From contig JAKAZQ010000003.1 in the NCBI GenBank assembly GCA_021815805.1, positions 93,703 to 157,702 on the forward strand: DNA of 64,000 bases, in the 5' to 3' direction. The notes beneath the pieces were generated by a model that saw only the letters and a list, made by a program, of their open reading frames with translations, made no database searches and was not told the origin of the DNA. Each line of letters starts with the position of its first letter. The stretch's first letter is position 1. Both the position numbers and the translations under genes were made by a program. Source of the stretch: Pseudomonadota bacterium (GTDB taxonomy: Bacteria > Pseudomonadota > Gammaproteobacteria > Burkholderiales > Burkholderiaceae_C). Shown here in pieces: positions 8,984 through 55,400 of the stretch.

Positions 8984-9019
8984 AGACTTCGAAAAAGGGT
9001 TTCGGAGAGAATCAAGTCG

Positions 9020-10210: not shown

Positions 10211-10282
10211 CGACAGCATTCGTGGCAGGAGGGCGCGCCCGCGCGGGCACCGGTCGAGCGCGCGCCGGGAATCCAGCATCCG

Positions 10283-10945
10283 GTGTACGACCCGGATTGT
10301 CGCCGCTGTTCGCGTCTTGCCGGGTTTCGCGACGCGGTTCGATTGCAGCATCCGCACTACGCCTGCCTTCCCGTGCCCTCTTTCGGGCCACGCGACGCGC
10401 GCCTGCTGGTCGTCGGGCTGGCGCCGGGACTGCACGGCGCGAACGCCACCAACCGCCCGTTCACCGGCGACGGCGCCGGCCCGCTGCTGTACGGAACCCT
10501 CGCCCGGCTGGGGCTCGCCGCGCGCGAGCCGGCGGTGCAGGTCGGCGATGCGGCCGCCAGCATCCGCGCCGCCGACGGCATGCGCCTGCTGGATTGCCGC
10601 ATCTGCAACGCCGTCAAGTGCCTGCCGCCCGCGAACAAGCCGAATCCGGCGGAGATCCGCGAGTGCAACGCCTATCTGCGCGCCGAGCTCGCGGCGATGC
10701 CGCGGCTGCGCGTCGTGCTGGCGCTGGGCACCGTGGCGCACGGCGCGGTGCTGCGCGCGCTCGGGTACAAGGCCTCGGCGGCGCGCTTCGGCCACGGCGC
10801 GCGGCATGCGCTGGACGGCCCGGTGCTGTACGACAGCTACCACTGCAGCCGCTACAACCAGAACACCGGCCGGCTCACCGCGGAGATGTTCCACGCCGTG
10901 CTGGCACGCGCCGCGGCCGAGGCCGCGGCCGGAGAGGCGCCGTGA
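10283..10945 (+). CDS. uracil-DNA glycosylase (family 5 / UdgB-like); start uncertain
   Basis: [59 protein letters not shown]. Confidence 0.9.
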
Positions 10946-22402: not shown

Positions 22403-22600
22403 CGGTGTCGTCAACGCTTGAGTCGACGCGCCGCCGGCTTGCGGGGCGCCGCTGTGCGCTGTGAACAGGAAGCTTCGCGTGCTGGAGCGGCGCTCGGCCT
22501 TGGGCCCGGAGCCATCGGGACACCGGGAGTTTCGGTATGCTGGCCGCCGTGCTGACCCGGCGCCCGCGCCTTGCAGGTGGCGTGCAGACCCGTTCCGAGG

Positions 22601-31839: not shown

Positions 31840-32229
31840 ATGAATCCTTGGTTTTCGACTTCTCTGGGGGCCTTGGCTCTGGCCGTTCTGGCGCCCATGG
31901 CGGGCGCCGCGATGCCTTCGCATGATGCGGCGCGACAGATCGAGCTCGGCCACCACCTGTACGACGAGCACTGCGCGTCGTGCCACCGCGCCGACGGACG
32001 GGGTGGTGTGCACTTCGCGCACGCCGTATCGGCCGACCTGCAGGCCCCCGGGCTTGAGCGCGACTACCACCACAGCGATGCGCTGATCGTGCGCGCGATC
32101 CTCGAGGCACGCGACGAGGACGGGGAGCGGCTCGACCAGCCGATGCCGGCGTGGCGCGGGCGGCTCAGCCCGACACAGGCGCGTGCGATCGTGGCCTATC
32201 TGCACACGCTGCACGGGCCGGCGCGCTGA
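31840..32229 (+). CDS. periplasmic c-type cytochrome
   Basis: AGGAG RBS, signal peptide, CASCH heme motif, distal QPMPAW Met. Confidence 0.88.
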   Translation: MNPWFSTSLGALALAVLAPMAGAAMPSHDAARQIELGHHLYDEHCASCHRADGRGGVHFAHAVSADLQAPGLERDYHHSDALIVRAILEARDEDGERLDQPMPAWRGRLSPTQARAIVAYLHTLHGPAR

Positions 32230-32257
32230 GGCACCGCGGCGCGCGCGACGCCGCCGC

Positions 32258-35200
32258 TCAGGTCCCGGCCGCGCAGGCCGGCAGGTCCTGCATCGCGCCG
32301 CCGTCGGGCACGCCGCGCGCGGGCTGGCCCGGCGGCACGCGCCCGGCCAGCCAATGCATCAGGCGGCGCGAGGCCTCGCTCGCGTCGGCGCCTGCGTCAT
32401 GCACCTGCGCGTGCCAGCGCTGGACGTCGTCGTGCTCGCCGGCCACGCCGTGCAGGAAGCCGTGCAGCGGGCACTGCGCCGGCTCGAGCGGATGGCGGCC
32501 CGCGCCGAAGCCGGTGTGTTGCCATTGGAAGGCCAGCGCGCCCAGGCTGGTCTGCAGCTTCCCGGCGCGAACGTCGATGGGCAGGCGGTAGTGCCTGACC
32601 CACTCCGGCACGTCATGCGCGGGCATCGGGCGCGCGATGGCGTAGCCCTGGCCGAAGCGCGCGCCCAGCACGGCCGCGGCCTCCATGGAGTCCAGGTGCT
32701 CGAGGCCCTCGACGGTGACATCGCGCCCGAGTTCGCGCACCAGCCGGATCAGGGTTCCGAGCATGGTCGTGGTCTCCAGCGGACTCTGCCGGAACTGCCG
32801 CGTCAGGTTCTGGTCGATCTTGATGGCCTCGAAGCGGATGCTGGAGAGCCGGTGGATGTTGCTGTAGCCGGCGCCGAAGTCGTCCATCGCCAGATGCACG
32901 CCGAGGGCGCGCAGCCGATCCATCTCCTCGGCCTGCGCCACGTCGTCGTCGAGCTGCACCTCGAGCAGCTCGAGGGTCAGGCGTCGCGGCTCGATGGCGT
33001 GCGCGCGCAGTGCCTGGTCGATCCATGCCGCGCAGTCGACATCCGACAGCACCGACGGCGGCAGGTTCAGCGCCACGCCCAGTTGCAGCCCCTGCTCGCT
33101 CCACCTGCGCAGGTCGGCCAGCGACTGGCGCAGCCCTTCGCGGAACACCCGCCCGAGTTCGTTGCCGCCGAGCAGCGGGATGAACCCGGCCGGCCCGATG
33201 ATCGTGCCGTCCGGCATCTTCAGGCGCGCCAGCGCTTCGAGCTTGGCGACCTGTCCCGTCTGCAGGTCGACGATCGGCTGGTAGAACATTTCCAGGCCGC
33301 CCGAGAACAGGATCTCGCGGAAGGCCACGGCGCGGGCCTGGCTGATGGCCATGTGCTGCACGCTGGTGGATCCGAGCCAGATCGACTCCATGCGCCGCTG
33401 CACGGCGCCGGCCCACTGCTGCACCCATTCCGATGCGAACTGGCGCGGATAGGCGCCGTACAGGGTCAGCACGCCCTCGACATGCCGGTCGCGCCCGACG
33501 AACGGAATCGACACGTTGGAGTGGATCGCGCAAGCCTCGGCCATCTCGCGCCAGGCCTGCATCTGCGGATGCTGCATGCGCGGGTCGTGCAGGCAGGAGT
33601 CGACACGATGAATCTCCTGGGTGCGCCACGCGACGGCCGTCGGCGTCTGGCCGCCGGGCGCGTTGGGATCGATGGACGCGCGCAGGTCGCCGTGGCTCAG
33701 ACGCTGGCCGAGCTCCAGGCTCAGCACCCCGGCACTGTGCTCGACGATGATCTCGCCCTCCAGGTTCAGGCGACTCAGCGTGACCATGACGATTCCGGGC
33801 AGCGTGTCCAGCGCTTGCAATTCGGCGTGCGCGGCGTCGGCCCACAGCGACTGTCGATCCGAGCCCGGCCGTGACAGGTAGGCCATGTAGGCCCGGTTGG
33901 TCTCCTCGAGCATGCTGACCTGCTGCTCCAGGTCGTCCTGCAGGCGTGCATCGATGATCTGGAACATGCGAAGCCGTCGTCTGGCGACCAGGCGTTCGCC
34001 GGCGATCTTGCTGGAGAGGATGGAGCGGAACAGCGAGGACGACTTGACCAGCATGCGCGTGTTGACGCCGACCAGCGCATGCGCGCGCCCGATGCGTCGG
34101 GAGGCCTCGCGCAGCGTCTGCCGGTCCAGCTCCGGGTCGGCGAGCCGGCGCAGGTGCGCGGCCTGCGCACCGCGCAGGCGCTCGGTGCCGGTTTCGCCGA
34201 GGGATCGGAGGATCGACAGCGCTTCGGCGTCGTCGGCCAGCATCGCATAGAAGGCACTGATGAAGTCGTCGCTGATGCGCTCGAACACCGGGCCGAGCTG
34301 GGTCATGCGCAGCGCCGCTTCCGCGCCGTAGGGATCGACCGGCTGCTCGACCTCCGCGGCGCCCACCTGGCGCACGCCGAGTTGCCACCAGCTGGCGCGT
34401 TCGCCCTTGCGGCGCTTGACCTGGTACATCGCGGCATCGGCGGTGCGCAGCAGTCCGTCGGCGTCGTTGGCCTGGCTCGGGTACAGCGCCACGCCCATGG
34501 TCATGTCGATGCGCAGGGTGTGGCCGCCGTCGAGATGGAAGGGCTCCTCGACGGCGCGATGCAGGCGCTCGAACACCGTGTCCAGGGTCACCTGCAGGTA
34601 GTCGGCGTCGAGGCGAGGCAGCACGACGACGAATTCGTCGCCGGAAATGCGCGCCGCCTCGCCGTCGCCGCCGAGGTGCTGGCGCAGGCGCTGCCCGAGT
34701 GCGCGCAGGATCTGGTCGCCCGCGGCGTGGCCGTGCTGGTCGTTGACCGGCTTGAAGTCGTCGAGGTCGATGTATCCCACCGCGAGCAGACCGCCTCGCG
34801 CGGCGGCGCGGGCGATGGTTTCGCGCAGCAACTGGTTCAGTCCGCTGCGGTTGCGCAGGCCGGTGATTTCGTCGATGTGGATGCGCTCGGCGGCCTTCGC
34901 CCGCAGGTAGGCGATGTGCAGGAAGATGCGCTCGGTCTTTTGCGCCGACTTGACCAGGTACAGGCCGAACACGGCGCCCATGACCCCGAGTGCCTGGATT
35001 CCGGGCACCGCGGAGCCAAGCAGGCGCACGAGCAACGCCACGAGCGTGGGCACCACGAACAGGCTGGCCGAGCGCGCGTCGGAGGCCAGCTCGCTGGCGC
35101 CCGCGCCGCAGATCGCCGCGATGATGGTGGCCAGTTGCAGCTGGCCCACGACGGAGCGCGGAAACATGAACAGCGGCAGCGCGGTCCAGGCGAGGGCGGT

Positions 35201-35650
35201 GAGCAGCACCCCCGCGCGCAGGCGCCGCAGACATCCGTGCAGGTCCGGCGCGCGTCCCGGCCTGCGCATGTCGTGCCAGCCGATGAGTCGCACGACATGC
35301 GCCAGCCCGAGAAACGCGAGCCAGGTCACGAGTTTCCACGCCGGGATCAGGGTGTGCAGCAGCCACGCCGTCATGCCCGCCGACAGGTAGCTCGACAGCA
35401 GGGCCAGCGGGATCGGGCTGAGCAGCAGCGCGACCCGGTTGCGCAGCACCTCGCCGTCGGTGAGCTGGAAGGCGCGCAGATTCTCGGGCATGGCGCGCCA
35501 GGGCAGCGCCGGGATCGGCGGCATGGACGCGTCCGGGGCATGCGGATCCGGCGTGGCGGCAGCGTCTGCGGCGAAGCGCCGCGCGACGTCGGCCGGCGCG
35601 CCGGCCGACGCCTGCTTCGGCGCCTCGCCGTGGGGGAGGGAAGTGCTCAT
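32258..35650 (-). CDS. membrane-bound GGDEF-globin-GAF-EAL protein
   Basis: N-terminal TM bundle; DEITGLRNR...YIDLDDFKPVNDQHGHAAGD...ARISGDEF; globin FYAML...IGRAHALVGV; GAF; KLEALARL...DDFGAGYS. Confidence 0.9.
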   Translation of the reverse strand: MSTSLPHGEAPKQASAGAPADVARRFAADAAATPDPHAPDASMPPIPALPWRAMPENLRAFQLTDGEVLRNRVALLLSPIPLALLSSYLSAGMTAWLLHTLIPAWKLVTWLAFLGLAHVVRLIGWHDMRRPGRAPDLHGCLRRLRAGVLLTALAWTALPLFMFPRSVVGQLQLATIIAAICGAGASELASDARSASLFVVPTLVALLVRLLGSAVPGIQALGVMGAVFGLYLVKSAQKTERIFLHIAYLRAKAAERIHIDEITGLRNRSGLNQLLRETIARAAARGGLLAVGYIDLDDFKPVNDQHGHAAGDQILRALGQRLRQHLGGDGEAARISGDEFVVVLPRLDADYLQVTLDTVFERLHRAVEEPFHLDGGHTLRIDMTMGVALYPSQANDADGLLRTADAAMYQVKRRKGERASWWQLGVRQVGAAEVEQPVDPYGAEAALRMTQLGPVFERISDDFISAFYAMLADDAEALSILRSLGETGTERLRGAQAAHLRRLADPELDRQTLREASRRIGRAHALVGVNTRMLVKSSSLFRSILSSKIAGERLVARRRLRMFQIIDARLQDDLEQQVSMLEETNRAYMAYLSRPGSDRQSLWADAAHAELQALDTLPGIVMVTLSRLNLEGEIIVEHSAGVLSLELGQRLSHGDLRASIDPNAPGGQTPTAVAWRTQEIHRVDSCLHDPRMQHPQMQAWREMAEACAIHSNVSIPFVGRDRHVEGVLTLYGAYPRQFASEWVQQWAGAVQRRMESIWLGSTSVQHMAISQARAVAFREILFSGGLEMFYQPIVDLQTGQVAKLEALARLKMPDGTIIGPAGFIPLLGGNELGRVFREGLRQSLADLRRWSEQGLQLGVALNLPPSVLSDVDCAAWIDQALRAHAIEPRRLTLELLEVQLDDDVAQAEEMDRLRALGVHLAMDDFGAGYSNIHRLSSIRFEAIKIDQNLTRQFRQSPLETTTMLGTLIRLVRELGRDVTVEGLEHLDSMEAAAVLGARFGQGYAIARPMPAHDVPEWVRHYRLPIDVRAGKLQTSLGALAFQWQHTGFGAGRHPLEPAQCPLHGFLHGVAGEHDDVQRWHAQVHDAGADASEASRRLMHWLAGRVPPGQPARGVPDGGAMQDLPACAAGT

Positions 35651-36049
35651 CGCGAAAATTGCATCGGCCCGGCGGGGCGCCGTGGAATCCACACCCTGCC
35701 CGAGACGACGAACAGGCGATGCGGGAAGTTCGGGAAAGCGCAGTCGCTGCGCAGCCACCTCGGTTTTGTACAGGCGCGGACTGGCACGGCCAAGGAAGGA
35801 TTTCACGAAGCGGCGCCGCTTCCGCGCATTCGGAGCTGAACCTCGCCAAAGCGTCGCGTTCATGCCACCGCGCGCCGGCCCCTGCGCCGGGCCGCTCCGG
35901 CACGCCGCAAGCCGCAAGCCACGCCTGAACGGTCCGCTGGTTGCACAACGTTACATTCGTGATCGGCCCCTGCGGGACTTGCGACAGCCCAGGCCGGCAT
36001 GCTTTGTGTCATCCTCGGGGCTGCGGCGAGACACGCCTGAGCCCCTGCC

Positions 36050-39000
36050 ATGCGCCCATTCCGGTGTCTTTGCGAACCCGCCTTGCGCGACGGCCGCGCC
36101 GCCGCGCCGGCCGCGGACCGTCCGCGACGCGCCCGGGCGACCCGTCGCGCAGCATCGCTGCGCGCGCTGCGCGGCTTGCTGTGCGCGCTGCTGGCCGGCC
36201 TGGGCCTGATGACCGCCAGCGCGCATGCGCGCGCCCTGCGCGTGGTCACCGACAACAACTATCCGCCCTACCTGTTCCTCGGCAGCGACGGCCGTGCGCA
36301 GGGCTACCTGGTCGATCTGTGGAAGCTCTGGCAGGCCAGGACGGGCGTGCGTGTCGACCTCGAGCCCATGCGCTGGGCGGCCGCGCAGCGCGCCATGCGC
36401 GACGGCAAGGCCGACGTCATCGACATGCTGTTCCGCACTCCCGCGCGCGAGCGCCTGTACGAATTCTCCAGACCGTACTCCACGCAGAGCGTGGGCATCT
36501 ACGTCGACCACGACATCCAGGGCATCACCGGCCCACGCTCGTTGCGTGGCTTCACCATCGGCGTGGAGCGCGGCGATGCCTGCATCGACAAGCTGGCCAG
36601 CCTGGGATTGACGCGCCTTGCCCTCTATGCGGACTATCGCGACATTCTGCGGGCCGCGAACCAAGGCGCGATAAAGATGTTCTGCATGGACGACGACCCA
36701 GCGAACTACTACCTGTACCTGTTGCGCGATCAACTGCGCTTCGCCAAGGCTTTCACGCTGTACCAGGGCCATTTCCACTGGGCCGTGCGTCGTGGCGATG
36801 CGGCCACCTTCGCGCTGGTCAGCCGGGGCATGGCGATGATCACGCCGGCCGAGCGCGCGGCGCTGCGGCGCAAGTGGTTCTCCCACCCGCCGCAGTTCCA
36901 GCCCTACCTGCGCATGGCCGCGCTGGCGGTCGGCGCGGCGCTGGCGGCGCTGGTCGCCGCGGCGGTCTGGATCGGCATGCTGCACCGCGCGGTGCGTGCG
37001 AAGACGACCGAGCTCAGCCAGGATCGCGCGCAGTTGCGCACGCTGCTGGAGAGCAGTCCCGATGCGATGTGGCTGAAGGACGACCAGGGGCGCTATCTGG
37101 AGTGCAACGCGCGTGCGGTCGACGTCATCGGACAGCCGCGCGAGCGCATCCTGGGGCGCACCGACGCCGAGTTGCACGGCAATCCCGCGTTGGTCGAGGC
37201 GGTGCGCGCGGTCGACCGGGAGGTCGCGCGCACCGGCGCCGAGCAGCGCGTCGAATTGCAGATCCAGCGTGCCGACGGTGTTTCCGGCACGCTCGAGATC
37301 CTCAAGGTGCCGGTGCGTTCGCCGGCAGGCGACCGCATCGGCCTGCTCGGGGTCGGGCGCGACATCACGGCGCGCCGCCACGCCGAGCGCGAGACACGGC
37401 TGGCCGCCGCGGCGTTCGAGGGACAGGACGCGATGATCGTGACCGATGCCGACAATGTCATCGAGCGCGTCAACGCCGCCTTCACCCGCATCACCGGGTA
37501 CACGGCGGGCGAGGCCATCGGCAGGACCCCGGCCCTGCTGCGCTCGGGCAGCCATGACCGCTCCTTCTACGAACGCCTGTGGGCGGAGCTCAAGGCGAAC
37601 GGACGCTGGTCGGGGGAGTTCGTGAATCGGCGCAGGAACGGAGAGTTGTTCAGCGCGCGCTGCGGGATCAGCATGGTGACCGACGCGCAGGGCCGGCTGC
37701 TGCACTATGTGGCGGCGTTCCAGGACATCAGCGCCGAACGCCAGGCGCGGCAGGAGGCCGAGCATCTCAAGTTGTTCGATCCCCTGACCCACCTGCCCAA
37801 TCGCAGTCTGCTGGACGACCGCATCGCGCACGCGCAGGCCGCCAGCGAGGAGTCGCGCCAGTTCGGCGCGGTGCTGGTGATCGAGCTCGATGCCTTCCAG
37901 CGCGTGAACGACGCGCTCGGGCACGGCGCGGGCGACGAGTTGCTGGTCGAGATCGCGCGGCGCATCCAGTGGGTCGTGCGGGACGGCGACACCCTGGCTC
38001 GCTTCGGCGGTGCGAGCTTCGCCGTCGTCACCGAGGACCTCGGCACCGCGCCGGCCCAGGCGGTGACGCGCGCCATGAAGGTCGCCGAGAAGATCCGCCG
38101 CGCCATCGAGCAGCCGCTCGGCCTGGCCGGCCAGAACCGGGTCTGCACGGCGTCCATCGGCGCCACCGTGTTCCTGGGCAGCGACGCAAGGCGCGGGGTG
38201 CTGTTGCGCGAGGCCGAGCTCGCCATGCACAAGAGCCAGCAGCGCGGCGGCAATGCCGCCCGCCTGTTCGAGGACGCGATGCAGGCCGAGGTGGAGGCGC
38301 GCGCGCGCCTGGAGGCGGAGTTGCGCGAGGCCATCGAGCGGCGCCAGTTCGTGCTGCACTATCAGGCGCAGGTCGACGCCTCCGGCGGCGTGATCGGCGC
38401 CGAGGCGCTGCTGCGCTGGCAGCACCCGCAGCGCGGCCTGGTGAGCCCGGGCGAGTTCATCGCGCTGGCCGAGGACACCGGGCTGATCCGGCCGATCGGG
38501 CAATGGGTGCTGCAGCAGGCATGCCGCCAGCTGGCACGCTGGTCGACGCGCAGCGAATGCCGCGACCTGACGCTGTCGGTGAATGTCAGCACGCGCCAAT
38601 TCCGCGCGCCGCAGTTCGTCGACGAGGTGCTCGGCGAGGTCGCGCGATGCGGCGCCCAGCCCGAGCGACTCAAGCTCGAGATCACCGAGAGCCTGGCCAT
38701 CGACGACTTCGAGACCTCGGTCGCAAAACTGCAGGCCCTGCGCGACGCCGGGATCCTGCTGTCGATCGACGACTTCGGCACCGGCAACTCCTCGCTCACC
38801 TACCTCACGCGCCTGCCGCTGAACCAGTTGAAGATCGACAAGTCCTTCGTCGACCAGCTGCCCGCCAGCCACAGCGCCGCGATGGTCGCGCAGACCATCA
38901 TCGCCATGGGCGGCGGCCTCGGCCTGCACGTCATCGCCGAGGGCGTGGAGACGCTCGAGCAGCGCGAGTTCCTGGCCTTGCACGGCTGCCATGCGTTCCA

Positions 39001-39085
39001 GGGCTACCTGTTCGGCAGGCCGGTTCCGCTGGCGGTGTTCGAGCACGCCGCGGGCGCCGCACCGGATCGTCGGTCGCGCGCCTGA
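36050..39085 (+). CDS. SBP3-PAS-PAS-GGDEF(degenerate)-EAL phosphodiesterase; start uncertain
   Basis: DNNYPPYLF periplasmic binding domain, TM helix, two PAS, ARFGGASF, GAEALLRW, DDFGTGNSSL. Confidence 0.9.
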   Translation: MRPFRCLCEPALRDGRAAAPAADRPRRARATRRAASLRALRGLLCALLAGLGLMTASAHARALRVVTDNNYPPYLFLGSDGRAQGYLVDLWKLWQARTGVRVDLEPMRWAAAQRAMRDGKADVIDMLFRTPARERLYEFSRPYSTQSVGIYVDHDIQGITGPRSLRGFTIGVERGDACIDKLASLGLTRLALYADYRDILRAANQGAIKMFCMDDDPANYYLYLLRDQLRFAKAFTLYQGHFHWAVRRGDAATFALVSRGMAMITPAERAALRRKWFSHPPQFQPYLRMAALAVGAALAALVAAAVWIGMLHRAVRAKTTELSQDRAQLRTLLESSPDAMWLKDDQGRYLECNARAVDVIGQPRERILGRTDAELHGNPALVEAVRAVDREVARTGAEQRVELQIQRADGVSGTLEILKVPVRSPAGDRIGLLGVGRDITARRHAERETRLAAAAFEGQDAMIVTDADNVIERVNAAFTRITGYTAGEAIGRTPALLRSGSHDRSFYERLWAELKANGRWSGEFVNRRRNGELFSARCGISMVTDAQGRLLHYVAAFQDISAERQARQEAEHLKLFDPLTHLPNRSLLDDRIAHAQAASEESRQFGAVLVIELDAFQRVNDALGHGAGDELLVEIARRIQWVVRDGDTLARFGGASFAVVTEDLGTAPAQAVTRAMKVAEKIRRAIEQPLGLAGQNRVCTASIGATVFLGSDARRGVLLREAELAMHKSQQRGGNAARLFEDAMQAEVEARARLEAELREAIERRQFVLHYQAQVDASGGVIGAEALLRWQHPQRGLVSPGEFIALAEDTGLIRPIGQWVLQQACRQLARWSTRSECRDLTLSVNVSTRQFRAPQFVDEVLGEVARCGAQPERLKLEITESLAIDDFETSVAKLQALRDAGILLSIDDFGTGNSSLTYLTRLPLNQLKIDKSFVDQLPASHSAAMVAQTIIAMGGGLGLHVIAEGVETLEQREFLALHGCHAFQGYLFGRPVPLAVFEHAAGAAPDRRSRA

Positions 39086-39256
39086 GCATCGGCCGGATGC
39101 GCGGCGGGCTGCCCGGCGCCGGCGTCTGCCGTGCTTGCCCGGCTGCGCCAGTCGGGGCGCTGCCACGGCCGGCCGCCAGGCTGCGCTGGCAATTGCTCGA
39201 CAATTGCGCAAAAACCCCGCGTCAAGGCACAATCGTTCGCAGGGCGAGCAAAAATC

Positions 39257-41323
39257 ATGACACGCCACTCCGCAGCTGGAACTTCGTCGACGACAGCGGG
39301 CGCCTCGCGGTTGCATGCGCCACGCCTGCAGGTTCGCGCCGGCCTGCTCGACGAAGGCGACGACGCGACGCGCGACGGCCTGCGGGCCGTGCTGGACGCG
39401 GCCGGCCTGGAGGTATGCGAGGTGGCACCCGACGACGCGCTGGCGCGCGCCGGATCGGCCAAGGCCCTGACGCAGCTGCGATCCTGCGATTTCGTCGTCG
39501 CGCGTCTGGGCTGCGCGCGTGCGGCGGCCACGCTGCTGGCGCGCCTGCAGCGCCGCCCCGATGCGCCGCCGCTGCTGCTGCTGCTGGGCGAGGTCGAGCC
39601 GGCGCAGGAGCTCGAACTGCTCGACAAGGGCTGTGCCTGGGTGCTCGGCGGCGCTCGCCACGACCTGTTGCCGCACGCCGTTCGCCGCATGCGCGACGCC
39701 GCCGCGCAGTTGCGCGCGCTGGGTGACGCCGGTACCCAGCTGCGACGTGTCGGGGAGCGTTTCGAAGCCGTGTTCGCGCATGCCCCGACCTCGGTGCTGG
39801 TGTTCGAGCTCGACGCGTATCGCCTGCTCGAAGCCAACCCGGTGGCCTGCCGCATGTTCGATCTGCCGCAGGCGGGGCTGGACGAGGTCTCGCTGCCTTC
39901 GCTGGTGCATGCGCAGGATCTGGGCGCGCTGCACGCGGCGGTGCGGCAGTTGCGCGATGGCGTGGACACGCGCGTGCGTCTGGAGTTGCGCATGTGCCGG
40001 CGCGACGGTAACGATTTCTGGGGCGACCTCAGCCTGGCCTGCCTGGGCGCGGTCGGCGGGGTTCCCGGAAGCCTGATCGCGCATGTGCTGAACATCAGCC
40101 TGCGCAAGCAGGCCGAGGCCAGCGCCGCGGACACCCAGGCCGAACTCGAGCGCAGGGTGCGCGAGAAGACCGCCGATCTGGTGGTGCAGCGCCGGCGCGT
40201 GGAGTCCCTGTACGCGATCAGCTCGCAGGTCGCGGCGGCGCAGACCATGGCGCAGATGGGCGACGAGTTCGTCGTGGCGCTGCGCCGTCTCGCCGCGGCC
40301 GACGCCGTGGTGTTGCGGCGCTGCGACCCGCAGCAAGGCTTCGGCGAGGTGCTCGCCGCGGCGGGAGTGCCGCGCGAGGAGTGCCTGCTTCCGGGGAACT
40401 GCGATCCGAGCGGCGCCCCGGACGGCGCCTGCGGCATCGACGCGGGCGGCGCGTGGCCGCGCTGCCTGCCGGCGCACGCGCGCCGCATGCTGCGCATGCC
40501 GGTGGTCTCGCAGGGACGCAGGCTCGCCGTGCTGGACCTCGCCTACGCCGGCGACGCGCGCTTGCCGGGCGCCGATGAACTGCCCCTGCTGGAGGCCGCC
40601 GTCGGGCATCTGGCCTCCGGCATGGAGGCGCTGCGCAGTGCGGCCCTCGAGCGCGAGGCGGCCGTCGCCGCCGAGCGCGGGCTGCTGGCGCGTGAATTGC
40701 ACGATTCCATCGCCCAGGCGCTGGCGTTCATGAACATCCAGCTGGAAATCCTGCGCTCCGCCTTGCAGGCCGCGGACGCAGCGCGCACCGCCCACGCGCT
40801 CGAGGAACTCGACGCCGGTTTGCGCGAGAGCTCGGAGGACGTGCGGGAACTGCTGCTGCACTTCCGCACTCGCACCACGGCCGAGGACATCGCGCCGGCG
40901 ATTCGCAGCACGCTGCAGAAGTTCGAGTTGCAGTGCGCCGTGCCGGTGCAACTGGATCTGGACACCCGCGGCCGCAGTCTGGACGCCGATGTGCAGGTGC
41001 AGCTGTTGCACATCCTGCAGGAGGCGCTGTCGAACGTTCGCAAGCACGCCTGCGCCACGCGCGTGCACGTGGTCGTGCGCAGCATCCCGCACTGGCGCAT
41101 CGAGGTGCGCGACGATGGCCGCGGTTTCGACCCGGCGGCGCGCGCGCGCGACGCGCAGGCCCATGTCGGGCTGCAGATCATGCGCGAGCGCGCGGCGCAG
41201 ATCGGCGCCACCGTGCGCCTGCGCTCGCGGCCCGGCGAAGGCACCGAGGTGGTGGTGGAGCGCGCGCCGCCGCATGCGGCGGCCGGCGCCGGCGAACGGA
41301 GGCTGCATGTCGGGGGTGCCTGA
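39257..41323 (+). CDS. NarX-like cytoplasmic histidine kinase (pseudo-receiver, PAS, GAF, HisKA_3, HATPase)
   Basis: ERGLLARELHDSIAQAL H-box, QEALSNVRKHA, DDGRGF, HVGLQIMRERA; no TM segments. Confidence 0.9.
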   Translation: MTRHSAAGTSSTTAGASRLHAPRLQVRAGLLDEGDDATRDGLRAVLDAAGLEVCEVAPDDALARAGSAKALTQLRSCDFVVARLGCARAAATLLARLQRRPDAPPLLLLLGEVEPAQELELLDKGCAWVLGGARHDLLPHAVRRMRDAAAQLRALGDAGTQLRRVGERFEAVFAHAPTSVLVFELDAYRLLEANPVACRMFDLPQAGLDEVSLPSLVHAQDLGALHAAVRQLRDGVDTRVRLELRMCRRDGNDFWGDLSLACLGAVGGVPGSLIAHVLNISLRKQAEASAADTQAELERRVREKTADLVVQRRRVESLYAISSQVAAAQTMAQMGDEFVVALRRLAAADAVVLRRCDPQQGFGEVLAAAGVPREECLLPGNCDPSGAPDGACGIDAGGAWPRCLPAHARRMLRMPVVSQGRRLAVLDLAYAGDARLPGADELPLLEAAVGHLASGMEALRSAALEREAAVAAERGLLARELHDSIAQALAFMNIQLEILRSALQAADAARTAHALEELDAGLRESSEDVRELLLHFRTRTTAEDIAPAIRSTLQKFELQCAVPVQLDLDTRGRSLDADVQVQLLHILQEALSNVRKHACATRVHVVVRSIPHWRIEVRDDGRGFDPAARARDAQAHVGLQIMRERAAQIGATVRLRSRPGEGTEVVVERAPPHAAAGAGERRLHVGGA

Positions 41324-41999
41324 GGCGCGCGTGCTGCTGGTCGACGACCATGCGCTGTTCCGGCGCGGGCTCGCGGCGCTGCTGGCGGAGCAGCCGGACC
41401 TGAGCCTGGTCGGCGAGGCCGGCGACGTCAACGAGGCGCTGCGCCTGGCCCATGCGCTGCAGCCGGAGCTGGTGCTGCTCGACAACCACCTGCCGGGGGT
41501 GCCCGGGGTGCAGGCGATCGAGCCGCTGCGCGGCTGCGCGCCCGCCGCGCGCGTGCTCATGCTCACGGTGAGCGAGTCGGTGGAGGACCTGCGCACCGCG
41601 CTGCGCAGCGGCGCCGCCGGCTATGTGCTCAAGAGCTGCGCCCCCGCCGAACTGCTCGGGGCGATGCGCCGTGCCCTGCTCGGCGAGACCGTGATCGGCA
41701 GCGGGCTGTCGACCAAGGTGATGCAGGCCTTCGCGCCCGAGCCGGCGCCGGCGCCGGCTTCGGAGCATCGCGCGCTGGCTGTCGACGACGTGTTCGCCTG
41801 CCTGAGCGCGCGCGAGCACGCCGTCGCGCAGGCCATCGCGCGCGGCGCGAGCAACAAGCGCATCGCACTCGACCTCGACATGGCGGAGGCCACCGTGAAG
41901 GCCCATGTGCGGGTGATCCTGCGCAAGCTCGGGCTGCGCTCGAGGGTGCAGATCGCGGTGCTCGCCAGCGGCGCGGCAGGCGGTATCCGAAAGGACTAG
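41307..41999 (+). CDS. NarL/FixJ-family response regulator
   Basis: VLLVDDHALFRRGL, LLDNHLPG, YVLKS, LuxR HTH LSAREHAV..GASNKRIA...TVKAHV. Confidence 0.92.
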   Translation: MSGVPEARVLLVDDHALFRRGLAALLAEQPDLSLVGEAGDVNEALRLAHALQPELVLLDNHLPGVPGVQAIEPLRGCAPAARVLMLTVSESVEDLRTALRSGAAGYVLKSCAPAELLGAMRRALLGETVIGSGLSTKVMQAFAPEPAPAPASEHRALAVDDVFACLSAREHAVAQAIARGASNKRIALDLDMAEATVKAHVRVILRKLGLRSRVQIAVLASGAAGGIRKD

Positions 42000-42114
42000 T
42001 CCCTGCGCGCCGTGGCGAACGGCCGTGCGGTGGATGGTCCGGGAGCAGCTGCCCGCCTAGAGTGAGGGCGTCGGTCGGGCGTCGTGCAGCCGGGCCGCCT
42101 CCGAGTCCCTGCCC

Positions 42115-42960
42115 GTGTCCCTCCTGCCCGTCCCCATCGCCATCGAAGCCGCTCGCTTCGCGAGTTCCGAGCGCGACTTCCAGCGTGTGTGCGACTGGCT
42201 GCGCCAGCAGTGCGGCATGGACTACCGCGAGAACAAGCGCGAGCTGCTGGAGCATCGCATGCGGCGCGTCTGCGAGCGCGAGCAACTGGCTTCGATGGGC
42301 GAGCTGGCCGAGCGCCTGGAGCGCGGCGGCGACACCGCGCTGCAGCTTTCGGTGCTGCACGCGGCGTCGACCAACCACACCTATTTCTACCGCGAGCCGC
42401 AGGTGCTGCAGTTTTTCGCGCAGGTCATCCTGCCGGCGCTGCGACCGGGCGACCTGCGCATGTGGAGCGCCGCGGCATCGTCGGGCGACGAGGCCTACAC
42501 CGCGGCCATGCTCGCGGCGCAGGCCTACGGCCTCGACGCCGCGTCCTGCGGGGTATCGATTCTCGGCACCGACATCAGCGCCGTGATGATCGAGGCCGCC
42601 GAGCAGGCGGTGTATCCGGCGTCGCGCCTGAGCGCGCTGCCGGCGCCGTTGCGCGAGCGCTACCTCGAGGAGTTGCCGCAGGCGCGACTGCGCGTGGCGG
42701 CGCCGATTCGCGCCATGTGCACCTTCCGGCGCCTGAACCTGAAGAGCATGCCGCTGCCGTTCCAGCGCAACTTCCATGTCGTGTTCTGCCGCAACGTGCT
42801 GTACTACTTCGACCGGCAGCAGCAGCGCGCCACGGTGGAGGCCATCTACGACGTCACCGAACGCGGCGGCTGGCTGCTGACCAGCGTCACCGAGCCGCTG
42901 CGCGACCTGAACTCGCGCTGGACCCAGGTGCAAAGCGGCGTGTATCGCCGGCTGGACTGA
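42115..42960 (+). CDS. cheR: chemotaxis methyltransferase CheR
   Basis: TNHTYFYRE, WSAAASSGDEAYT, GTDIS, VFCRNVLYYFD. Confidence 0.93.
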   Translation: MSLLPVPIAIEAARFASSERDFQRVCDWLRQQCGMDYRENKRELLEHRMRRVCEREQLASMGELAERLERGGDTALQLSVLHAASTNHTYFYREPQVLQFFAQVILPALRPGDLRMWSAAASSGDEAYTAAMLAAQAYGLDAASCGVSILGTDISAVMIEAAEQAVYPASRLSALPAPLRERYLEELPQARLRVAAPIRAMCTFRRLNLKSMPLPFQRNFHVVFCRNVLYYFDRQQQRATVEAIYDVTERGGWLLTSVTEPLRDLNSRWTQVQSGVYRRLD

Positions 42961-42961
42961 C

Positions 42962-44065
42962 ATGAAGCCGCCGCGGATCCTGCGCGTGCTCGTGGTCGAC
43001 GCCTCGCCGACCCGCAGGCGCCTGATGTGCCGGGCGATCGCCGCCGATGCCGGGCTCGAGGTGCTGGCGCAAGCCGCCGACGCGTGGGCCGCGCGCGACG
43101 CCCTGGTGCTGCAGGAACCCGATGTCGTGGTGCTCGACCTGGAACTGCCGGGCATCGACGGGCTCGCGCTGCTCGGGCGCTACATGCCGACGCTGCCGAC
43201 TCCGACGGTGGTGCTCGACGCGGGCCGTGCCGCCGACAAGGCGCGCCTGGCGCAGGCGCTTGCCGCCGGCGCCGCCGGCGTCGCGCCGCGGCCCTGCGCG
43301 GACGATCCGACACGCCGGCAGCGTCAGCTCGACCTGCTGCTGTCGCGCATCAAGGCGGCCGCGCGCGGCCGCCCCGGCGCGGCGCCGGCCGACCCCGCGC
43401 GCACCGACGACACCACGCAGCGCGCCAGCGAGCGACTGATCGCGGTGGGATCGTCCACCGGCGGCGTCGAGGCGCTGCACCAACTGTTGCCGGCGTTCGA
43501 CGAGCAGACGCCGGGCATGGTCATCGTGCAGCACATGCCGGCCGGCTTCACGGGCTCGCTGGCGCGTCGCCTCGACGGCCTCGGGCGCCTGCGCGTGCGC
43601 GAGGCGAGCGACGGCGATCGCGTATTGCGCGGCCACGCGCTGCTGGCCCCCGGCGGCACGCGGCACATGGTGCTGGTGCGCGCCGGAGCGCAATTCCGCG
43701 TGCGCCTGGTCGAAGGCGCGCCGGTGAACTACAGCCGCCCGTCGGTGGACGTGCTGTTCGAGTCCGTCGCCGCGCAGGCGGGGGCGCGCGCCGCGGCCAT
43801 CCTGCTCACCGGCATGGGACGCGACGGCGCCGCCGGGATGCTGGCGATCCGGCGCAGCGGCGGCCATACGGTGGCGCAGGACGAGGCCACGTCGGTCGTG
43901 TTCGGCATGCCGCAGATGGCGCGCCGCATGGGCGCCGCCGAGGCGGTGGCGCCGCTGTCGTCGATTCCGGCGACCCTCGCAAGACTCATGGCGTCGCAGC
44001 GTCCTGCCGCGGCGCGCCCCCCCACGAACGCAGGAGAACTCCATGACGCAAAACCAGGAATTTGA
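42962..44065 (+). CDS. cheB: chemotaxis methylesterase CheB with atypical receiver domain
   Basis: Catalytic GSSTGG, VQHMP, YSRPSVDVLF, LTGMGRDG intact. Confidence 0.93.
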   Translation: MKPPRILRVLVVDASPTRRRLMCRAIAADAGLEVLAQAADAWAARDALVLQEPDVVVLDLELPGIDGLALLGRYMPTLPTPTVVLDAGRAADKARLAQALAAGAAGVAPRPCADDPTRRQRQLDLLLSRIKAAARGRPGAAPADPARTDDTTQRASERLIAVGSSTGGVEALHQLLPAFDEQTPGMVIVQHMPAGFTGSLARRLDGLGRLRVREASDGDRVLRGHALLAPGGTRHMVLVRAGAQFRVRLVEGAPVNYSRPSVDVLFESVAAQAGARAAAILLTGMGRDGAAGMLAIRRSGGHTVAQDEATSVVFGMPQMARRMGAAEAVAPLSSIPATLARLMASQRPAAARPPTNAGELHDAKPGI

Positions 44066-44579
44066 GCGAAGCAGCGACCGGCTCGATGCCGAACCGGGCG
44101 ATGAATACACCGAACTGGTGTTTCGCGACGACGACAACGTCGACGACATGTACCTGACCTTCGGCGTCGCCACGGAGGAATACGGCATCGGCATCGGCTA
44201 CGTCACCGAGATCGTCAGCATGCAGCACATCGTGCAGATCCCGGAGTCGGCCCCGTCGATCAAGGGAATCATCAATCTGCGGGGCAAGGTGATTCCGGTG
44301 ATGGACCTGCGCCTGCGCTTCGGCCTGGAGACCAAGGAATACACCGAGCGCACGGTGATCATCGTGCTGTCGGTCAACGAAGTACCGGTCGGCCTGGTGG
44401 TCGACCATGTCAGCGAGGTGCTGGAGATTCCTCCGGCGCATATCGATACCGCCGTGCAGACCGGCGGCCGCGGCGCGTCCATGATCCGCGGCTTCGGCAA
44501 GCAGGCCAACCGTTTTGCCGCGATCGTCGACGTCGAGCGCATGCTCGAGGGCCAGTTGTCGGCGCCGCAATTGCATTGA
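44043..44579 (+). CDS. cheW: chemotaxis coupling protein CheW
   Basis: [46 protein letters not shown]. Confidence 0.95.
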
Positions 44580-44601
44580 ACCGCGAACCAAGGAGTCCAC
44601 C

Positions 44602-47016
44602 GTGAACGCCGTAGTCCAGTCTCCCTTCGATGGCGCCGTCGCCTGCCTGCGGGCCATGACCCAGCCGCTCATGCTGGCGGATGCCGATCTCACCATCCGC
44701 ATGGTCAACCAGGCCGCGAACCAGATGTTCCAGCGCCTCGAGCCCGAGATCCGCAAGGATCGCCCCGGCTTCGACGCCTCCCGCCTGGTCGGCCAGTCGA
44801 TCGACAGCTTCCACGCCCGCGGCGCGACCACGCGCCGCTCGGTGGAGAATCTGACGCAGCCGATGAGCGCCGAATTCCAGCTCGGCGACGCCCACCTGTG
44901 CTGCAGCATCGATCCGGTGTTCGACGAGCATGGCGAGCGCATCGCCACCATCGTCGAGTGGCGGGAGCAGCGCGCCGACGAGCAGACCGCGCGTCTGCTC
45001 GAGGATCTCGAGACCGTCTCGCGCCTGCACCAGCAGGGCGAGATCGACGCGGTCGTGGACAGCTCGCGCCACCGCGGCGCGTTCGCCAGCGTGGCCGAAG
45101 CCGTGAACACCATGGTCGGCGGCCACATCGCCGTGAAGCGCGCAGCCATGGCCTGCGTGGCGCAGATCGCCGACGGCAACTTCGATGCGCCGCTGGAGCG
45201 CTTCCCCGGCAAGAAGGCCTTCATCAACGACACCATCGAGAAGCTGCGCGCCAACCTGCGCGGGATGATCGACGCGATGAACCAGATGTCCCGCGAGCAC
45301 GACAAGGGCGACATCGATGTGTTCATCGACGCCGCGCGCTTCGGCGGCGCCTTCGGCACCATGGCCACCGGCATCAACAACATGGTGGCCGGGCACATCG
45401 CCGTGAAACGGAAGGCGATGGCCTGCGTGGCCGGCTTCGCGCATGGCGATTTCGACGCCGAACTGGAGCGCTTCCCGGGCAAGAAGGCCTTCATCAACGA
45501 CACCATCGAGACCCTGCGCGGCAACCTCAAGCAGCTGGTCGCCGAACTGCAGCGCCTGATCACCGCGTCCGGCGAGGGCAAGCTCGGCGAACGCGCCCGC
45601 ACCGGCAGCCTGGAAGGCGATTTCGCCGGGCTGGTCGGCGGCATCAACCGCATGCTCGACGAGATCCTGCTGCCGATCGCCGAGGGCAATCGCATCCTGC
45701 GCCAGATCCGCGGCGGCAACCTGCGCGAGAAGGTCGAGATCGCCTGCAAGGGCGACCACGAGCAGATGAAAAACGCCGTGAACGGCGTGCATGCCTGGCT
45801 CGAGAAGCTGATCAGCTTTGTCACGCATGTCGCCAACGGCGACCTCGAGGTCGAGATGGCCAAGGCCTCCGACGACGACCAGATCCACGAGTGGCTGATG
45901 CTGCTGAAGACCAACATCGCGAACATCGCGCGCGACACCGCCGACCTGTCGCAGGCGATCGTCGACGGCCAGCTCGATCGCAGCGTGGACGCCAGCGCCT
46001 ATGCCGGCGAGTATCGCAGGATCATCGAAGCCTTCGGGCGCGCCTTCGACGGCCTGAACGCCACGTTCGCGCAGGTCGTGGATGCGGTGGAGCAGGTCAG
46101 CGAGGCGTCGCAGCAACTGAGCGCGGCGTCGCAGGACATGGCATCCTCGTCCGAGGAGCAGTCGTCGGCGGTGGAGGAGGTGACCGCCAGCCTGGAGCAG
46201 ACCGACAGCCAGGTGAAGGCCAACACCGACAACGCCAACAGCGCCAACAAGCTGGTCAATGAAGCTTCCCAGTTCGCCTCCAACGGACAGGAGAAGATGG
46301 CGTCGATGAGCGAGTCCATGGCATCGATCAACGCATCGTCGCAGAACATCGCCAAGATCATCAAGGTCATCGACGAGATCGCGTTCCAGACCAATATCCT
46401 GGCGCTGAACGCCGCCGTGGAGGCGGCGCGCGCCGGGCAGCACGGCCGCGGCTTCGCGGTGGTCGCGCAGGAGGTGCGCAACCTGGCCGGGCGCAGCGCC
46501 AAGGCGGCGCGCGAGACCGCCGAGTTGATCGACGACTCGTCGAAGCGCGTCACCCAGGGGGTGGCGATCGCGGCCGAGACGAGCAGCGCGCTGCAGGCGA
46601 TCGTCGGCAACGTGATGCAGGTGCGCGAACTGGTGGGTGAGATCGCCACGGCGAGCGCCGAGCAGTCACGCGGCGTGTCGCAGATCAACACCGCAATGGG
46701 CCAGGTGGCGACGGCGGCGCAGCAGGGCAGCCAGCAGGCCGAGGAGCTGGCCTCCTCGTCGTCGCAGCTGAGCAGCGTGTCGGCGCAGCTGCGCGAGGAG
46801 ATGGCGCGCTTCAAGCTGCGCCCGCGCCAGCTCGCCGCACTCCAGGTGCCTGGGCTGGGCGAACTCAGCCCGGAGCAGCTGCGCCAGCTCAAGGCATTGC
46901 TCGGCCTGCAGGAGGCGCCGGCGCCGCGCGCCGCCGCGCGCCCGGCGGCACGCTCGCGGGTGCCCGGAAGGGTGCTGCCGCTGGACGCCGACGAACGCGG
47001 CTTCAAGCACTTCTGA
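44602..47016 (+). CDS. soluble Aer2-like chemoreceptor (PAS, poly-HAMP, MA, C-terminal pentapeptide)
   Basis: AGGAG RBS and GTG start; PAS SIDSFH...IVEW; repeated HAMP units; [37 protein letters not shown]; ends GFKHF. Confidence 0.93.
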
Positions 47017-47068
47017 CACGGCGCGGAGCAGCAGCGTGGCGCAGGCGGGCGCAAGCGGCGGGGCGGCC

Positions 47069-48103
47069 ATGACTGCGCAGTCGGCCATGGGCGCCTTGTA
47101 CCGCGCACTGGTGTTCGATGCCGATGCGCTGCTCGCGCCGCCGAGCGCGGATCACGCGCTGCACGCGGTATGCCGCATCATGCTCTGCGGCTCGGTGTTC
47201 GGGCAGGCCGCGCTGCTCAGGCCGGGCAGCGGCGTGCTGCGCTGGGAGAGCGTGCATGTGCAGGGCGACGACGACGCGCTGACGCAGCGCGCCGAGGTGT
47301 GCGAAGCGGCAGCGCGCAGCTGGGAGCGTGGCAGCGTGGAGCAGGCGCGCCGGCCGGGCGAGCCGGCGCGCTTCCTCGTCGCGCCGGTGCGTCGCGCCGG
47401 CAAGGCCCATCTGTTGCTGGCGCTGCGCGGCGTCGGCGCGGCCGAGATGCCCGCCGAAGCCCCCGCGCTGGTCGGCTGGGTCGCCGAGTTGCTCGGCCGC
47501 GCGCTCGACGACATCGACCTGAAGGCTTCGCTGATGCTCGACTGCGCGCGACAGGGCTATGCGGCACGCCATGACGCGGTGACCGCGCTGCCCAATGCGC
47601 GCGCCTTCACGGAACGCGTGCAGCGCGAGGCCGCGCTGGCGCAGGAGCGTGGCGCCTGCTTCGCCGTGGCGCTGCTGCGTCGCGGCCGGCGTGTGGCCGT
47701 TGCGGGCGCCGACGACGCGGCCGTGCGTGCGCTCGCGCAGCGTCTGCGTGGGCGCTTGCGCCGTGGCGACTATCTCGCGCGCATCGGCGACGATCTGTTC
47801 GGCGTGCTGCTGCGCGGGCTCGACGCGCGCCAGCCGCGCCAGGAGCTGGAGCGCCTGCTGCCGGTGCTGCTGCAGGACCGCGGTGCCGGCGCGCCGGCGT
47901 CGCGCGGGAGTGGCATGCTGCGCGCCGGACTCGCGCTGGCCGGCGCCGCGGGTACGCCGCAGGGAGACCTGCTGACGCTGGCGCGCCAGGCGCTGGCGGC
48001 CGCCGAGACAGCCTCCGGCCGGGGGCCGCGCTGGCGTGTGCTGCAGCCGGCACCGGTGGCGCCGCTGGCCGCCGCCGCAGCGGCTCGCGGGGGCCTGCCG
48101 TGA
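47069..48103 (+). CDS. GAF plus degenerate GGDEF protein
   Basis: RHDAVTALPNARAF...GDYLARIGDDLFGVLL; active-site motif degenerate. Confidence 0.65.
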   Translation: MTAQSAMGALYRALVFDADALLAPPSADHALHAVCRIMLCGSVFGQAALLRPGSGVLRWESVHVQGDDDALTQRAEVCEAAARSWERGSVEQARRPGEPARFLVAPVRRAGKAHLLLALRGVGAAEMPAEAPALVGWVAELLGRALDDIDLKASLMLDCARQGYAARHDAVTALPNARAFTERVQREAALAQERGACFAVALLRRGRRVAVAGADDAAVRALAQRLRGRLRRGDYLARIGDDLFGVLLRGLDARQPRQELERLLPVLLQDRGAGAPASRGSGMLRAGLALAGAAGTPQGDLLTLARQALAAAETASGRGPRWRVLQPAPVAPLAAAAAARGGLP

Positions 48104-55145: not shown

Positions 55146-55400
55146 GCCGCACGCGCAGCGCGGCGCGGCCAGGGGGTGGCGTGGCGCGCGGCGTGCGCAC
55201 CGCTTGCGCGCCGCCCGGGCCGTGGCCCGCGCGGCTCAAGTCCGGGCCCGGACGTGCCGTTAGCCGGTCAAGGCACGCGTGCATGCCGAGGTGCCGCGAG
55301 CCGCCCCAGGGTTGGCTCGATTCCGCGGGCGCCGGGGCATGCGCTACCCTCGGGCCAGGCCCGTCGGCGCATCCAGACCAGAGCACATTCCAGGCATTCC

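Follow-up and report, generated by a model that had tools for sequence, protein, structure and literature searches.

A conserved seven-gene module of uncultured mine-drainage proteobacteria combines an Aer2-like receptor, a NarX-derived kinase and a degenerate GGDEF protein, with no cheA alongside

A stretch of 64,000 nucleotides from a bacterium of the Burkholderiales (assembly GCA_021815805.1, contig JAKAZQ010000003.1, positions 93,703 to 157,702), hereafter the window, carries at 39257-48103 a 9-kb block of seven genes in which a chemoreceptor, its adaptation and coupling proteins, a two-component pair and a GGDEF-family protein are encoded side by side. Since the window is ~70% GC, genes were chosen by third-codon-position GC, and the choice was checked by Pfam, by NCBIfam and against the gene calls of an identical mine-drainage metagenome contig. 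All ten genes that a sequence-only reading had placed between 31840 and 48103 were recovered in this way, in position and in orientation. The block itself lies on the plus strand and opens with a soluble histidine kinase of 688 aa (39257-41323), comprising a receiver-like domain, PAS, S-helix, GAF-like domain, HisKA_3 and HATPase, of which Pfam and NCBIfam assign PAS, HisKA_3 and HATPase. The same databases identify the next gene as a NarL-family response regulator with a receiver (REC) and a GerE helix-turn-helix (41307-41999). There follow the methyltransferase CheR (42115-42960; Pfam CheR_N and CheR), the methylesterase CheB (42962-44065; Pfam and residue alignment), whose catalytic domain is intact and whose receiver is a degenerate pseudo-receiver, and the coupling protein CheW (44043-44579; Pfam CheW). 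The last two genes encode a soluble Aer2-like receptor of 804 aa with PAS, poly-HAMP and methyl-accepting chemotaxis protein (MCP) signalling domains (44602-47016; Pfam and PDB matches), and a 355-aa protein comprising a GAF domain and a catalytically dead GGDEF domain (47036-48103; Pfam, AlphaFold2 (AF2) and Foldseek). As the sequence-only reading had described, every gene from 36050 to 48103 is on the plus strand, and the ends overlap at two junctions: the intervals run +171, -17, +115, +1, -23, +22 and +19 nt, the 17-nt overlap joining the end of the kinase gene to the start of the regulator gene. No terminator-like site was found on the plus strand when this gene run was scanned, and a sigma-70 consensus scan of this 70% GC DNA yielded no plus-strand promoter above threshold.

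To place the block among relatives, we inspected the neighbourhoods of kinase homologues and ran a profile of the kinase-specific N-terminal half against one genome per GTDB species. Full-length relatives of the kinase are scarce, only ~10 among 5.8 billion protein clusters, and the searches yielded 15 related loci, which fall into five clades of uncultured proteobacteria from mine drainage and all come from metagenome-assembled genomes (MAGs) or metagenomes. The order of NarX-derived kinase, NarL-type regulator, CheR, CheB, CheW, Aer2-like receptor and GAF/dead-GGDEF protein is identical, orientation included, in every one of the 15. Identity to the window proteins across these loci is 49-67% for the kinase and 64-80% for the regulator, 73-83% for CheR, 69-87% for CheW, 72-84% for the receptor and 38-54% for the GGDEF protein. 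Because seven of the ten genes are syntenic in all related loci, their arrangement exceeds what chance would produce, and the comparison establishes, at the level of sequence, that the seven are inherited as one unit. The module is under clear purifying selection in all five clades. The 16-kb, ten-gene unit that had been proposed for this region thus contracts to the 9 kb of the module, with the other three genes outside the conserved unit; the gene-neighbourhood check proposed with it bears out seven of the ten genes, whereas the cytochrome c gene and the SBP-PAS-GGDEF-EAL gene have no counterparts. The proposed link of a sensor to transcription and to GGDEF-family signalling holds for the module, in that the receptor stands beside the two-component pair and the GGDEF-family protein in every relative.

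The GTDB-representative scan revealed no cultured carrier, only MAGs. The sole isolate match, Ideonella livida (L017), proved to be an unrelated PAS protein and was rejected as a module carrier. One MAG, ZJ1.bin68, holds two diverged full seven-gene modules that belong to different clades (L011 on JAKCDM010000002 and L015 on JAKCDM010000035), which may be paralogous modules in one genome or two strains binned together. In two other loci, L004 and L005, a stand-alone EAL gene and a further GGDEF gene lie directly downstream of the module. The metatranscriptome contigs of the same mine-drainage study include two fragments that align with the window at 90-92% identity, one at 44095-44369 (cheW) and one at 45625-45824 (receptor). 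Their presence indicates that related modules are transcribed in situ. Among the metatranscriptome contigs there was no match of at least 99% for the window strain, and the remaining matches are mostly spurious, 20-55 nt long and derived from conserved domains. The carriers inhabit mine drainage, and O2 sensing is ecologically plausible given the steep gradients of O2 and redox state there.

Residues 1-125 of the module receptor match the PAS structures of Aer2 (3VOL, 4HI4 and 6CEQ; best E = 7e-20, to 3VOL). The equivalents of the haem-ligating His (His234 of Pseudomonas aeruginosa Aer2) and of the ligand-contacting Trp (Trp283) align at FH and VEW, respectively, and are kept in all eight complete orthologues. 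Pfam resolves the HAMP region into two HAMP_N3 domains, a McpB_HAMP_2 and a HAMP_2, amounting to a duplicated HAMP unit and additional HAMPs, and no transmembrane (TM) segment is discernible in the receptor sequence. The signalling domain is assigned to the 36H class because 296 of its residues align without gaps to Tsr; its tip is canonical and identical in all orthologues, and the EQ/EE pairs of the methylation sites are conserved. Every orthologue also ends in the tail ..LDADERGF(K/N)(H/G)F, which reads GFKHF, or GFNGF in clade E. This tail fits the x-[HFYW]-x2-[HFYW] tether described as a hallmark of Aer2-like receptors (Ortega et al., PMC7184735). The Aer2-like haem-PAS receptor of the sequence-only reading is thereby upheld: the protein is Aer2-type by sequence, with a predicted haem pocket whose His and Trp are conserved in every complete orthologue. 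The same haem-type PAS, multiple HAMPs, 36H domain and tether are found in Aer2/McpB of the P. aeruginosa Che2 (F7) cluster and in Vibrio Aer2, and P. aeruginosa Aer2, like the window receptor, is encoded beside its own cheR, cheB and cheW. The window cluster differs in lacking cheA, cheY and cheD, in the dead receiver of its CheB, and in the NarX-type pair and dead GGDEF protein that flank its che genes; its receptor differs in that the PAS domain stands at the very N-terminus, ahead of the duplicated HAMP unit.

The lack of a CheA extends to every locus inspected. Neither cheA nor cheY is present in the window or, in any of the relatives, at a distance of up to 10 kb from the block, and the cheD, cheA and cheY set of F7 clusters is likewise absent from the window and from within 10 kb in the 15 related loci. 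Moreover, no Hpt, H-kinase_dim or CheA-type protein was detected in the window or in the related loci. The remaining chemosensory components are readily recognized, with the MCP, CheW, CheR and the CheB catalytic domain all giving Pfam matches well above cut-offs. The CheB catalytic motifs GSSTGG, QHMP and GMGRDG are intact in the module copies. In the CheB receiver, the acid pair (D11) is lost, and all module copies have Arg at the position of K109; D56 is Gly in L007 and L014, and Glu combined with a three-residue deletion in L008, L009 and L016. Having lost its phosphorylation residues, the receiver places CheB outside phosphorylation control, and by these residues CheB cannot be phospho-regulated in the module. 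Outside the module, at 55176-57278 on the plus strand, the window encodes a second soluble MCP of ~700 aa with a C-terminal extension of ~190 aa that has no Pfam match. Gaps are needed to align its short signalling domain with the Aer2-like receptor, which places it in another heptad class. The presence of this second MCP gene implies that a CheA is encoded somewhere in the genome.

The closest receptors outside the module, 52-66% identical, are found in three outgroup clusters (L018:591-11691, L019:4148-12454 and L020:4016-12553), two of them on Methylococcaceae-type contigs. These clusters are ordered as a short CheA, CheR, CheB, CheW, a ParA or MCP gene, and the receptor. Their short CheA, of 409-415 aa, comprises the dimerization, kinase and CheW-like domains (P3-P4-P5) and has no Hpt. 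In L018, CheY and a long CheA with an Hpt domain are also encoded; for L019 and L020, the 16-22 kb retrieved contain no Hpt partner. The CheBs of the outgroups are canonical throughout, their receptors have the same tail as the module receptor, and an acidic extension at the N-terminus is common to the CheWs of module and outgroups. Where the outgroups have the short CheA, the module has the kinase/regulator pair. CheAs without Hpt, comprising only P3-P5 as in CheA4, were very rare in a published survey (PMC2829493), and CheOp3 of Rhodobacter sphaeroides combines such a split CheA (CheA4 with P3-P5, CheA3 with P1 and P5) with PpfA and TlpT (PMC2829493; PMC10924463). Compared by these published components, the outgroup clusters match CheOp3; the module retains the CheR-CheB-CheW-receptor order and differs in having neither CheA gene, no CheY and no ParA-like gene. 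These comparisons indicate that the module descends from a cytoplasmic chemosensory cluster of short CheA, CheR, CheB, CheW and a soluble receptor. They likewise indicate that in the module lineage the CheA gene was replaced by a NarX-derived kinase and a NarL-type regulator, and that the GAF/dead-GGDEF gene was added downstream.

The ancestry of the replacement kinase is evident from its C-terminal half, which is ~50% identical to canonical Burkholderiales NarX. In place of the periplasmic nitrate domain, TM segments and HAMP of NarX, the kinase has a PAS and a further N-terminal domain; the nitrate-sensing domain (PF13675-type), TM and HAMP are absent from the kinase and from nine orthologues and present in the NarX matches. 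Kinase and regulator both fail the NCBIfam NarX/NarL equivalog test, with 132-170 bits against cut-offs of 553-578 for the kinase and 178 against 250 for the regulator. In the AF2 model of the kinase (mean pLDDT 74), the N-terminal domain adopts a (beta-alpha)5 receiver-like fold lacking the acceptor Asp, a likeness confined to AF2 topology, as hhalign comparison with receivers by sequence gives probabilities below 4%. Fold matches of the kinase are PAS-GAF kinases, and its catalytic motifs are intact. No CheW- or P5-like docking domain was recognized in the kinase or in the GGDEF protein by Pfam, AF2 or Foldseek. The regulator retains its phosphorylation residues (the DD, D59, T and K equivalents) in all orthologues, from which it is read as able to be phosphorylated. 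The window pair resembles NarX-NarL in combining a HisKA_3 kinase, with S-helix and GAF-like domain, and a NarL-family regulator, and differs in lacking the periplasmic nitrate-binding domain, TM and HAMP. It likewise resembles the hypoxia systems DosS/DosT-DosR in its HisKA_3/GAF-like kinase, and differs in that the GAF has no conserved haem ligand.

A cysteine cluster in this kinase, C-x5-C-x9-C-x11-C, had been taken for a third O2/redox-sensing chemistry at the locus. The cluster sits inside the GAF-like domain, and three of the four Cys of the NarX C..CxC..C motif are kept in the window and two relatives. Cysteines of this kind are a described signature of NarX (PMC3519889), and a review finds no evidence that the GAF-like domain of NarX senses anything (PMC8199190). 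The cluster is lost in seven of ten orthologous kinases, and the proposed third chemistry is better described as a remnant of NarX. We reject it as an Fe-S or redox sensor, on account of its NarX inheritance and poor conservation among orthologues. An Fe-S PAS kinase of the NreB type was rejected too, the cysteines being unconserved and located in the GAF-like domain rather than in the PAS, which has no invariant Cys. Across the orthologues, the PAS and GAF lack any invariant His or Cys, and with it any conserved candidate ligand for haem or flavin; with the Cys cluster decaying as well, the kinase bears no mark of an O2 or redox sensor.

At the junction between the regulator gene and cheR, the 10-bp palindrome GGACTAGTCC lies on the regulator stop codon (41993-42002), and cross-locus comparison finds exactly one copy at this position in all 16 module loci (L001-L016) and none in the outgroups. 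Codons preceding GGACTAGTCC differ between loci while the DNA of the palindrome stays fixed; it is longer, 14-16 bp, in L004, L005 and L007 (up to 16 bp in L007). Promoter-like boxes were identified by cross-locus conservation. A putative -10-like box, CCTAGAGTG (42056-42064, plus strand), lies ~55 bp downstream of the palindrome and ~50 bp 5' of cheR. It is common to the window, L002, L004, L005 and L007, and in L008 and L009, of the most distant clade, TAAATTG stands in its place. Upstream of the kinase gene, a further promoter-like element may be read from the sequence as TTGCGC-N18-CACAAT (39204-39233, plus strand), and the L002 orthologue is preceded by the matching TTGCGC-N18-CAGAAT. We infer that the palindrome is a candidate operator for the adjacent GerE-type regulator, and that the junction may hold an internal, activator-dependent promoter for the genes from cheR to the GGDEF gene. 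The DosR box of mycobacteria is TTSGGGACTWWAGTCCCSAA (PMC2275270). The half-sites of the palindrome, GGACT/AGTCC, are similar to it, which offers a lead, while the 2-nt spacer of the mycobacterial box is absent here. The palindrome may in this sense represent a candidate operator for a DosR-like regulator.

The final gene of the module encodes a member of a tiny family, with four protein clusters among 5.8 billion proteins. Its N-terminal 150 residues form a GAF fold by AF2 and Foldseek (TM-score ~0.6 on targets), the only part in which the model is confident. The GGDEF motif is degenerate in every copy (GDDLF in the window, and DDGVF, GDCEF and GESEF), and the metal-binding DxD region is lost. 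Five residues before the degenerate motif, all copies have an RxxD (RRGD, RHRD, RQRD or RPCD) that aligns with the RESD of TpbB. Judged by these residues, the protein cannot make cyclic di-GMP (c-di-GMP) and keeps a c-di-GMP-binding site, which makes it a probable c-di-GMP receptor. PelD-type c-di-GMP receptors combine a GAF domain with a degenerate GGDEF domain and bind c-di-GMP at RxxD. The window protein is alike in its GAF fold, its dead GGDEF domain and the retained RxxD and differs in having no membrane anchor, and homology to PelD was not detected by sequence in PDB searches. In the most distant clade, a hemerythrin is fused N-terminally to the dead GGDEF (L008:17653-19155 and L009:17099-18601; 46.8 bits), with the usual His/Glu metal-binding motifs, which gives the module a further domain of a kind that binds O2, iron or NO.

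Three further genes complete the ten of the sequence-only reading. The gene immediately upstream of the module encodes a 1011-aa protein with an SBP_bac_3 domain, a TM segment, two PAS domains, GGDEF and EAL (36050-39085, plus strand; Pfam and NCBIfam). It is present as described, except that its degenerate GGDEF domain (GGASF) had been overlooked, and the protein is probably a phosphodiesterase. The gene is specific to the window, with no counterpart in any related locus, as is the gene for a monohaem cytochrome c of 128 aa with a CASCH motif (31843-32229, plus strand; Pfam Cytochrom_C). Between the two, on the minus strand, lies the gene for a 1130-aa membrane protein with a hydrophobic N-terminus and the order GGDEF-Protoglobin-GAF-like-EAL (32258-35650; Pfam, the GAF-like stretch being unassigned). 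Its GGDEF (SGDEF) and EAL motifs look competent by eye; the 250 hydrophobic N-terminal residues and ~120 residues after EAL have no Pfam match. The Protoglobin match is weak (32.6 bits against a Pfam cut-off of 25). The globin is internal (residues 448-565), and its proximal His (F8) aligns with His93 of GsGCS, within a HALVGV stretch invariant in homologues (..IGRAHALVGV..). The distal Tyr (B10) is present in the window and L002, and is Phe in L004 and L005. Globin-coupled sensors (DosC, BpeGReg and GsGCS) and DosP likewise link a sensor to c-di-GMP turnover domains, through a Protoglobin-family globin in the former. In globin-coupled sensors the globin is N-terminal, and the internal globin of the window protein is unusual for the family. 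Homologues of the globin-EAL protein are encoded 2-4 kb upstream of the module in three of the five clades and are absent from the other two. The protein is fused as one chain in the window and L002 (L002:3949-7932, minus strand) and split into PAS-GGDEF and globin-GAF-EAL proteins in L004 (L004:5369-8398), L005 and L011. O2-binding domains thus recur around the module, with globin-EAL in three of five clades and hemerythrin in one, which supports the sequence-only reading in part; the cytochrome c and SBP genes are not conserved neighbours. Lineage-specific c-di-GMP genes thus appear to have been recruited around the seven-gene module.

On these observations, we tentatively favour a reading in which the two-component pair of the module induces an accessory O2 receptor, and this receptor, under modulation by c-di-GMP, signals via a CheA encoded elsewhere; we put the chance of this being correct somewhat short of even. 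The kinase would phosphorylate the regulator on a cytoplasmic cue read by its PAS or GAF, and the regulator would bind GGACTAGTCC and drive the internal promoter for the cheR-cheB-cheW-receptor-GGDEF genes. The receptor would bind O2 (or NO or CO) on a b-type haem via the conserved His. CheR and CheB, tethered at its C-terminal xFxxF tail, would methylate and demethylate it, with CheB acting without phospho-feedback. Through CheW, the receptor would then join an array with the CheA encoded elsewhere, giving an inducible input to aerotaxis or energy taxis. The GAF/dead-GGDEF protein would bind c-di-GMP at RxxD and modulate either the receptor complex or the kinase, and the c-di-GMP pool would be set by local enzymes that differ between lineages, here the globin-EAL and SBP-PAS-EAL proteins. 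This reading is supported by the strong conservation of CheW, the canonical receptor tip and regulator, and the intact kinase motifs; by the synteny, the outgroup gene order, the conserved haem residues, methylation sites and tether, the palindrome and -10-like box, and the dead GGDEF with its RxxD and GAF fold; by the second MCP gene; and by the absence, from both the kinase and the GGDEF protein, of any CheW- or P5-like domain able to engage a receptor tip. Several observations weigh against it: no CheA was seen in the window; the decay of the CheB receiver argues against any CheA phosphorylating CheB; the kinase/regulator pair stands in the ancestral CheA slot and is never apart from the che genes in our sample, neither of which a simple local-regulator model requires; and the metatranscriptome contigs yield just two divergent fragments, which are uninformative on operon structure. 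Aerotaxis itself, which the sequence-only reading had put forward as an output of the locus, is not established, given that cheA and cheY are missing from the window and from the vicinity of the orthologous blocks and the CheB receiver is non-functional by sequence.

The same observations lend themselves to a different reading, a hybrid in which the receptor/CheW complex controls the NarX-derived kinase, directly or via the GAF/dead-GGDEF protein, and the output is NarL-type transcription rather than motility. The kinase would here have taken over the function of the lost short CheA. In favour of the hybrid are the exact placement of the pair at the position of the outgroup short CheA, its co-occurrence with the che genes in 100% of the sample, and the lack of cheA and cheY in the window and within 10 kb in any locus. 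The CheB receiver has also decayed in three different ways, as would be expected where no CheA-type phosphodonor acts on it, and the receiver-like N-terminal domain of the kinase, without its acceptor Asp, could be a docking module. However, with no CheW- or P5-like domain in the kinase or GGDEF protein by Pfam or fold, no known mechanism would dock the kinase to the complex. The palindrome and promoter-like box before cheR fit a plain regulator-target relation, and the literature searched offers no precedent, and we regard this hybrid as rather unlikely. Its fullest form, a CheA-free array in which a haem-PAS receptor, CheW and methylation-based adaptation control an orthodox HisKA_3 kinase that has replaced a split CheA, with the dead GGDEF as adaptor or co-input and transcription as output, is in our estimation unlikely. 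The switch of the sequence-only reading, in which three O2/redox chemistries and ten genes form one 16-kb unit for aerotaxis and biofilm formation, draws on genes that do exist, nine of the ten encoding signalling proteins, on the recurrence of globin-EAL in three clades, on other c-di-GMP genes around the module in L004 and L005, and on the hemerythrin fused to the GGDEF protein in one clade. It is contradicted for three components, as the Cys cluster is inherited from NarX (PMC3519889) and lost in seven of ten orthologues and the cytochrome c and SBP-PAS-GGDEF-EAL genes are unique to the window. Moreover, the globin gene is transcribed divergently and is absent from two clades, and a separate promoter appears to serve the kinase gene; we consider such a switch improbable. 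The module could also be a decaying remnant, its che genes left behind after kinase loss and no longer signalling: compared with the outgroups it has lost cheA, cheY and ppfA, and its CheB receiver is degenerate. Against this, identity is 72-84% for the receptor and 69-87% for CheW across clades in which it is only 49-67% for the kinase, and the open reading frames are undisrupted. The CheB catalytic residues, methylation sites, haem ligands and tether are all conserved, and the metatranscriptome contigs include related cheW and mcp fragments, all of which makes decay highly improbable.

Each part of the module belongs to a known family. In the literature searched, we found neither a CheA-less Aer2 cluster nor a chemosensory cluster coupled to a HisKA_3 kinase, and the full combination of Aer2-type receptor, CheW, CheR and pseudo-receiver CheB, soluble NarX/NarL-type pair in the CheA position and PelD-like dead GGDEF without CheA was not found there either. 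CheA counts as the core component common to all chemosensory systems, and a survey reports the four core domains for all the CheAs that it covered (PMC10782961). The module therefore poses the question of what a chemoreceptor signals to when no CheA is encoded alongside it. Either outcome would be useful: an inducible, plug-in O2 receptor with phosphorylation-independent adaptation, or a receptor rewired onto a classical kinase. A CheA-free array, if true, would add a new class to the known chemosensory pathways and provide a natural instance of a chemoreceptor rewired onto a classical two-component kinase. The module may also serve as a small, self-contained example of c-di-GMP feeding into a receptor complex. 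In Wsp, as in other chemosensory systems whose output is c-di-GMP, MCP, CheW, CheR and CheB are likewise coupled genetically to a GGDEF-family protein; the Wsp system includes the CheA WspE and, as its active cyclase, the REC-GGDEF protein WspR, whereas the module has no CheA and its GGDEF protein is inactive and without a receiver. MapZ-CheR1 and PilZ-containing receptors resemble the module in that che genes are coupled to a c-di-GMP receptor.

Elsewhere in the window, on the minus strand at 8429-10894, the gene for elongation factor P (EF-P) adjoins that for the rhamnosyltransferase EarP, a pairing typical of beta-proteobacteria; taken with the Burkholderiales NarX matches of the kinase, it points to a betaproteobacterial source. 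The gene for a bacterial alpha-2-macroglobulin of 1975 aa, followed by that for a PBP1C-type transglycosylase/transpeptidase, lies immediately upstream of the cytochrome c gene (22571-30708, plus strand), forming the usual A2M-PbpC pair.

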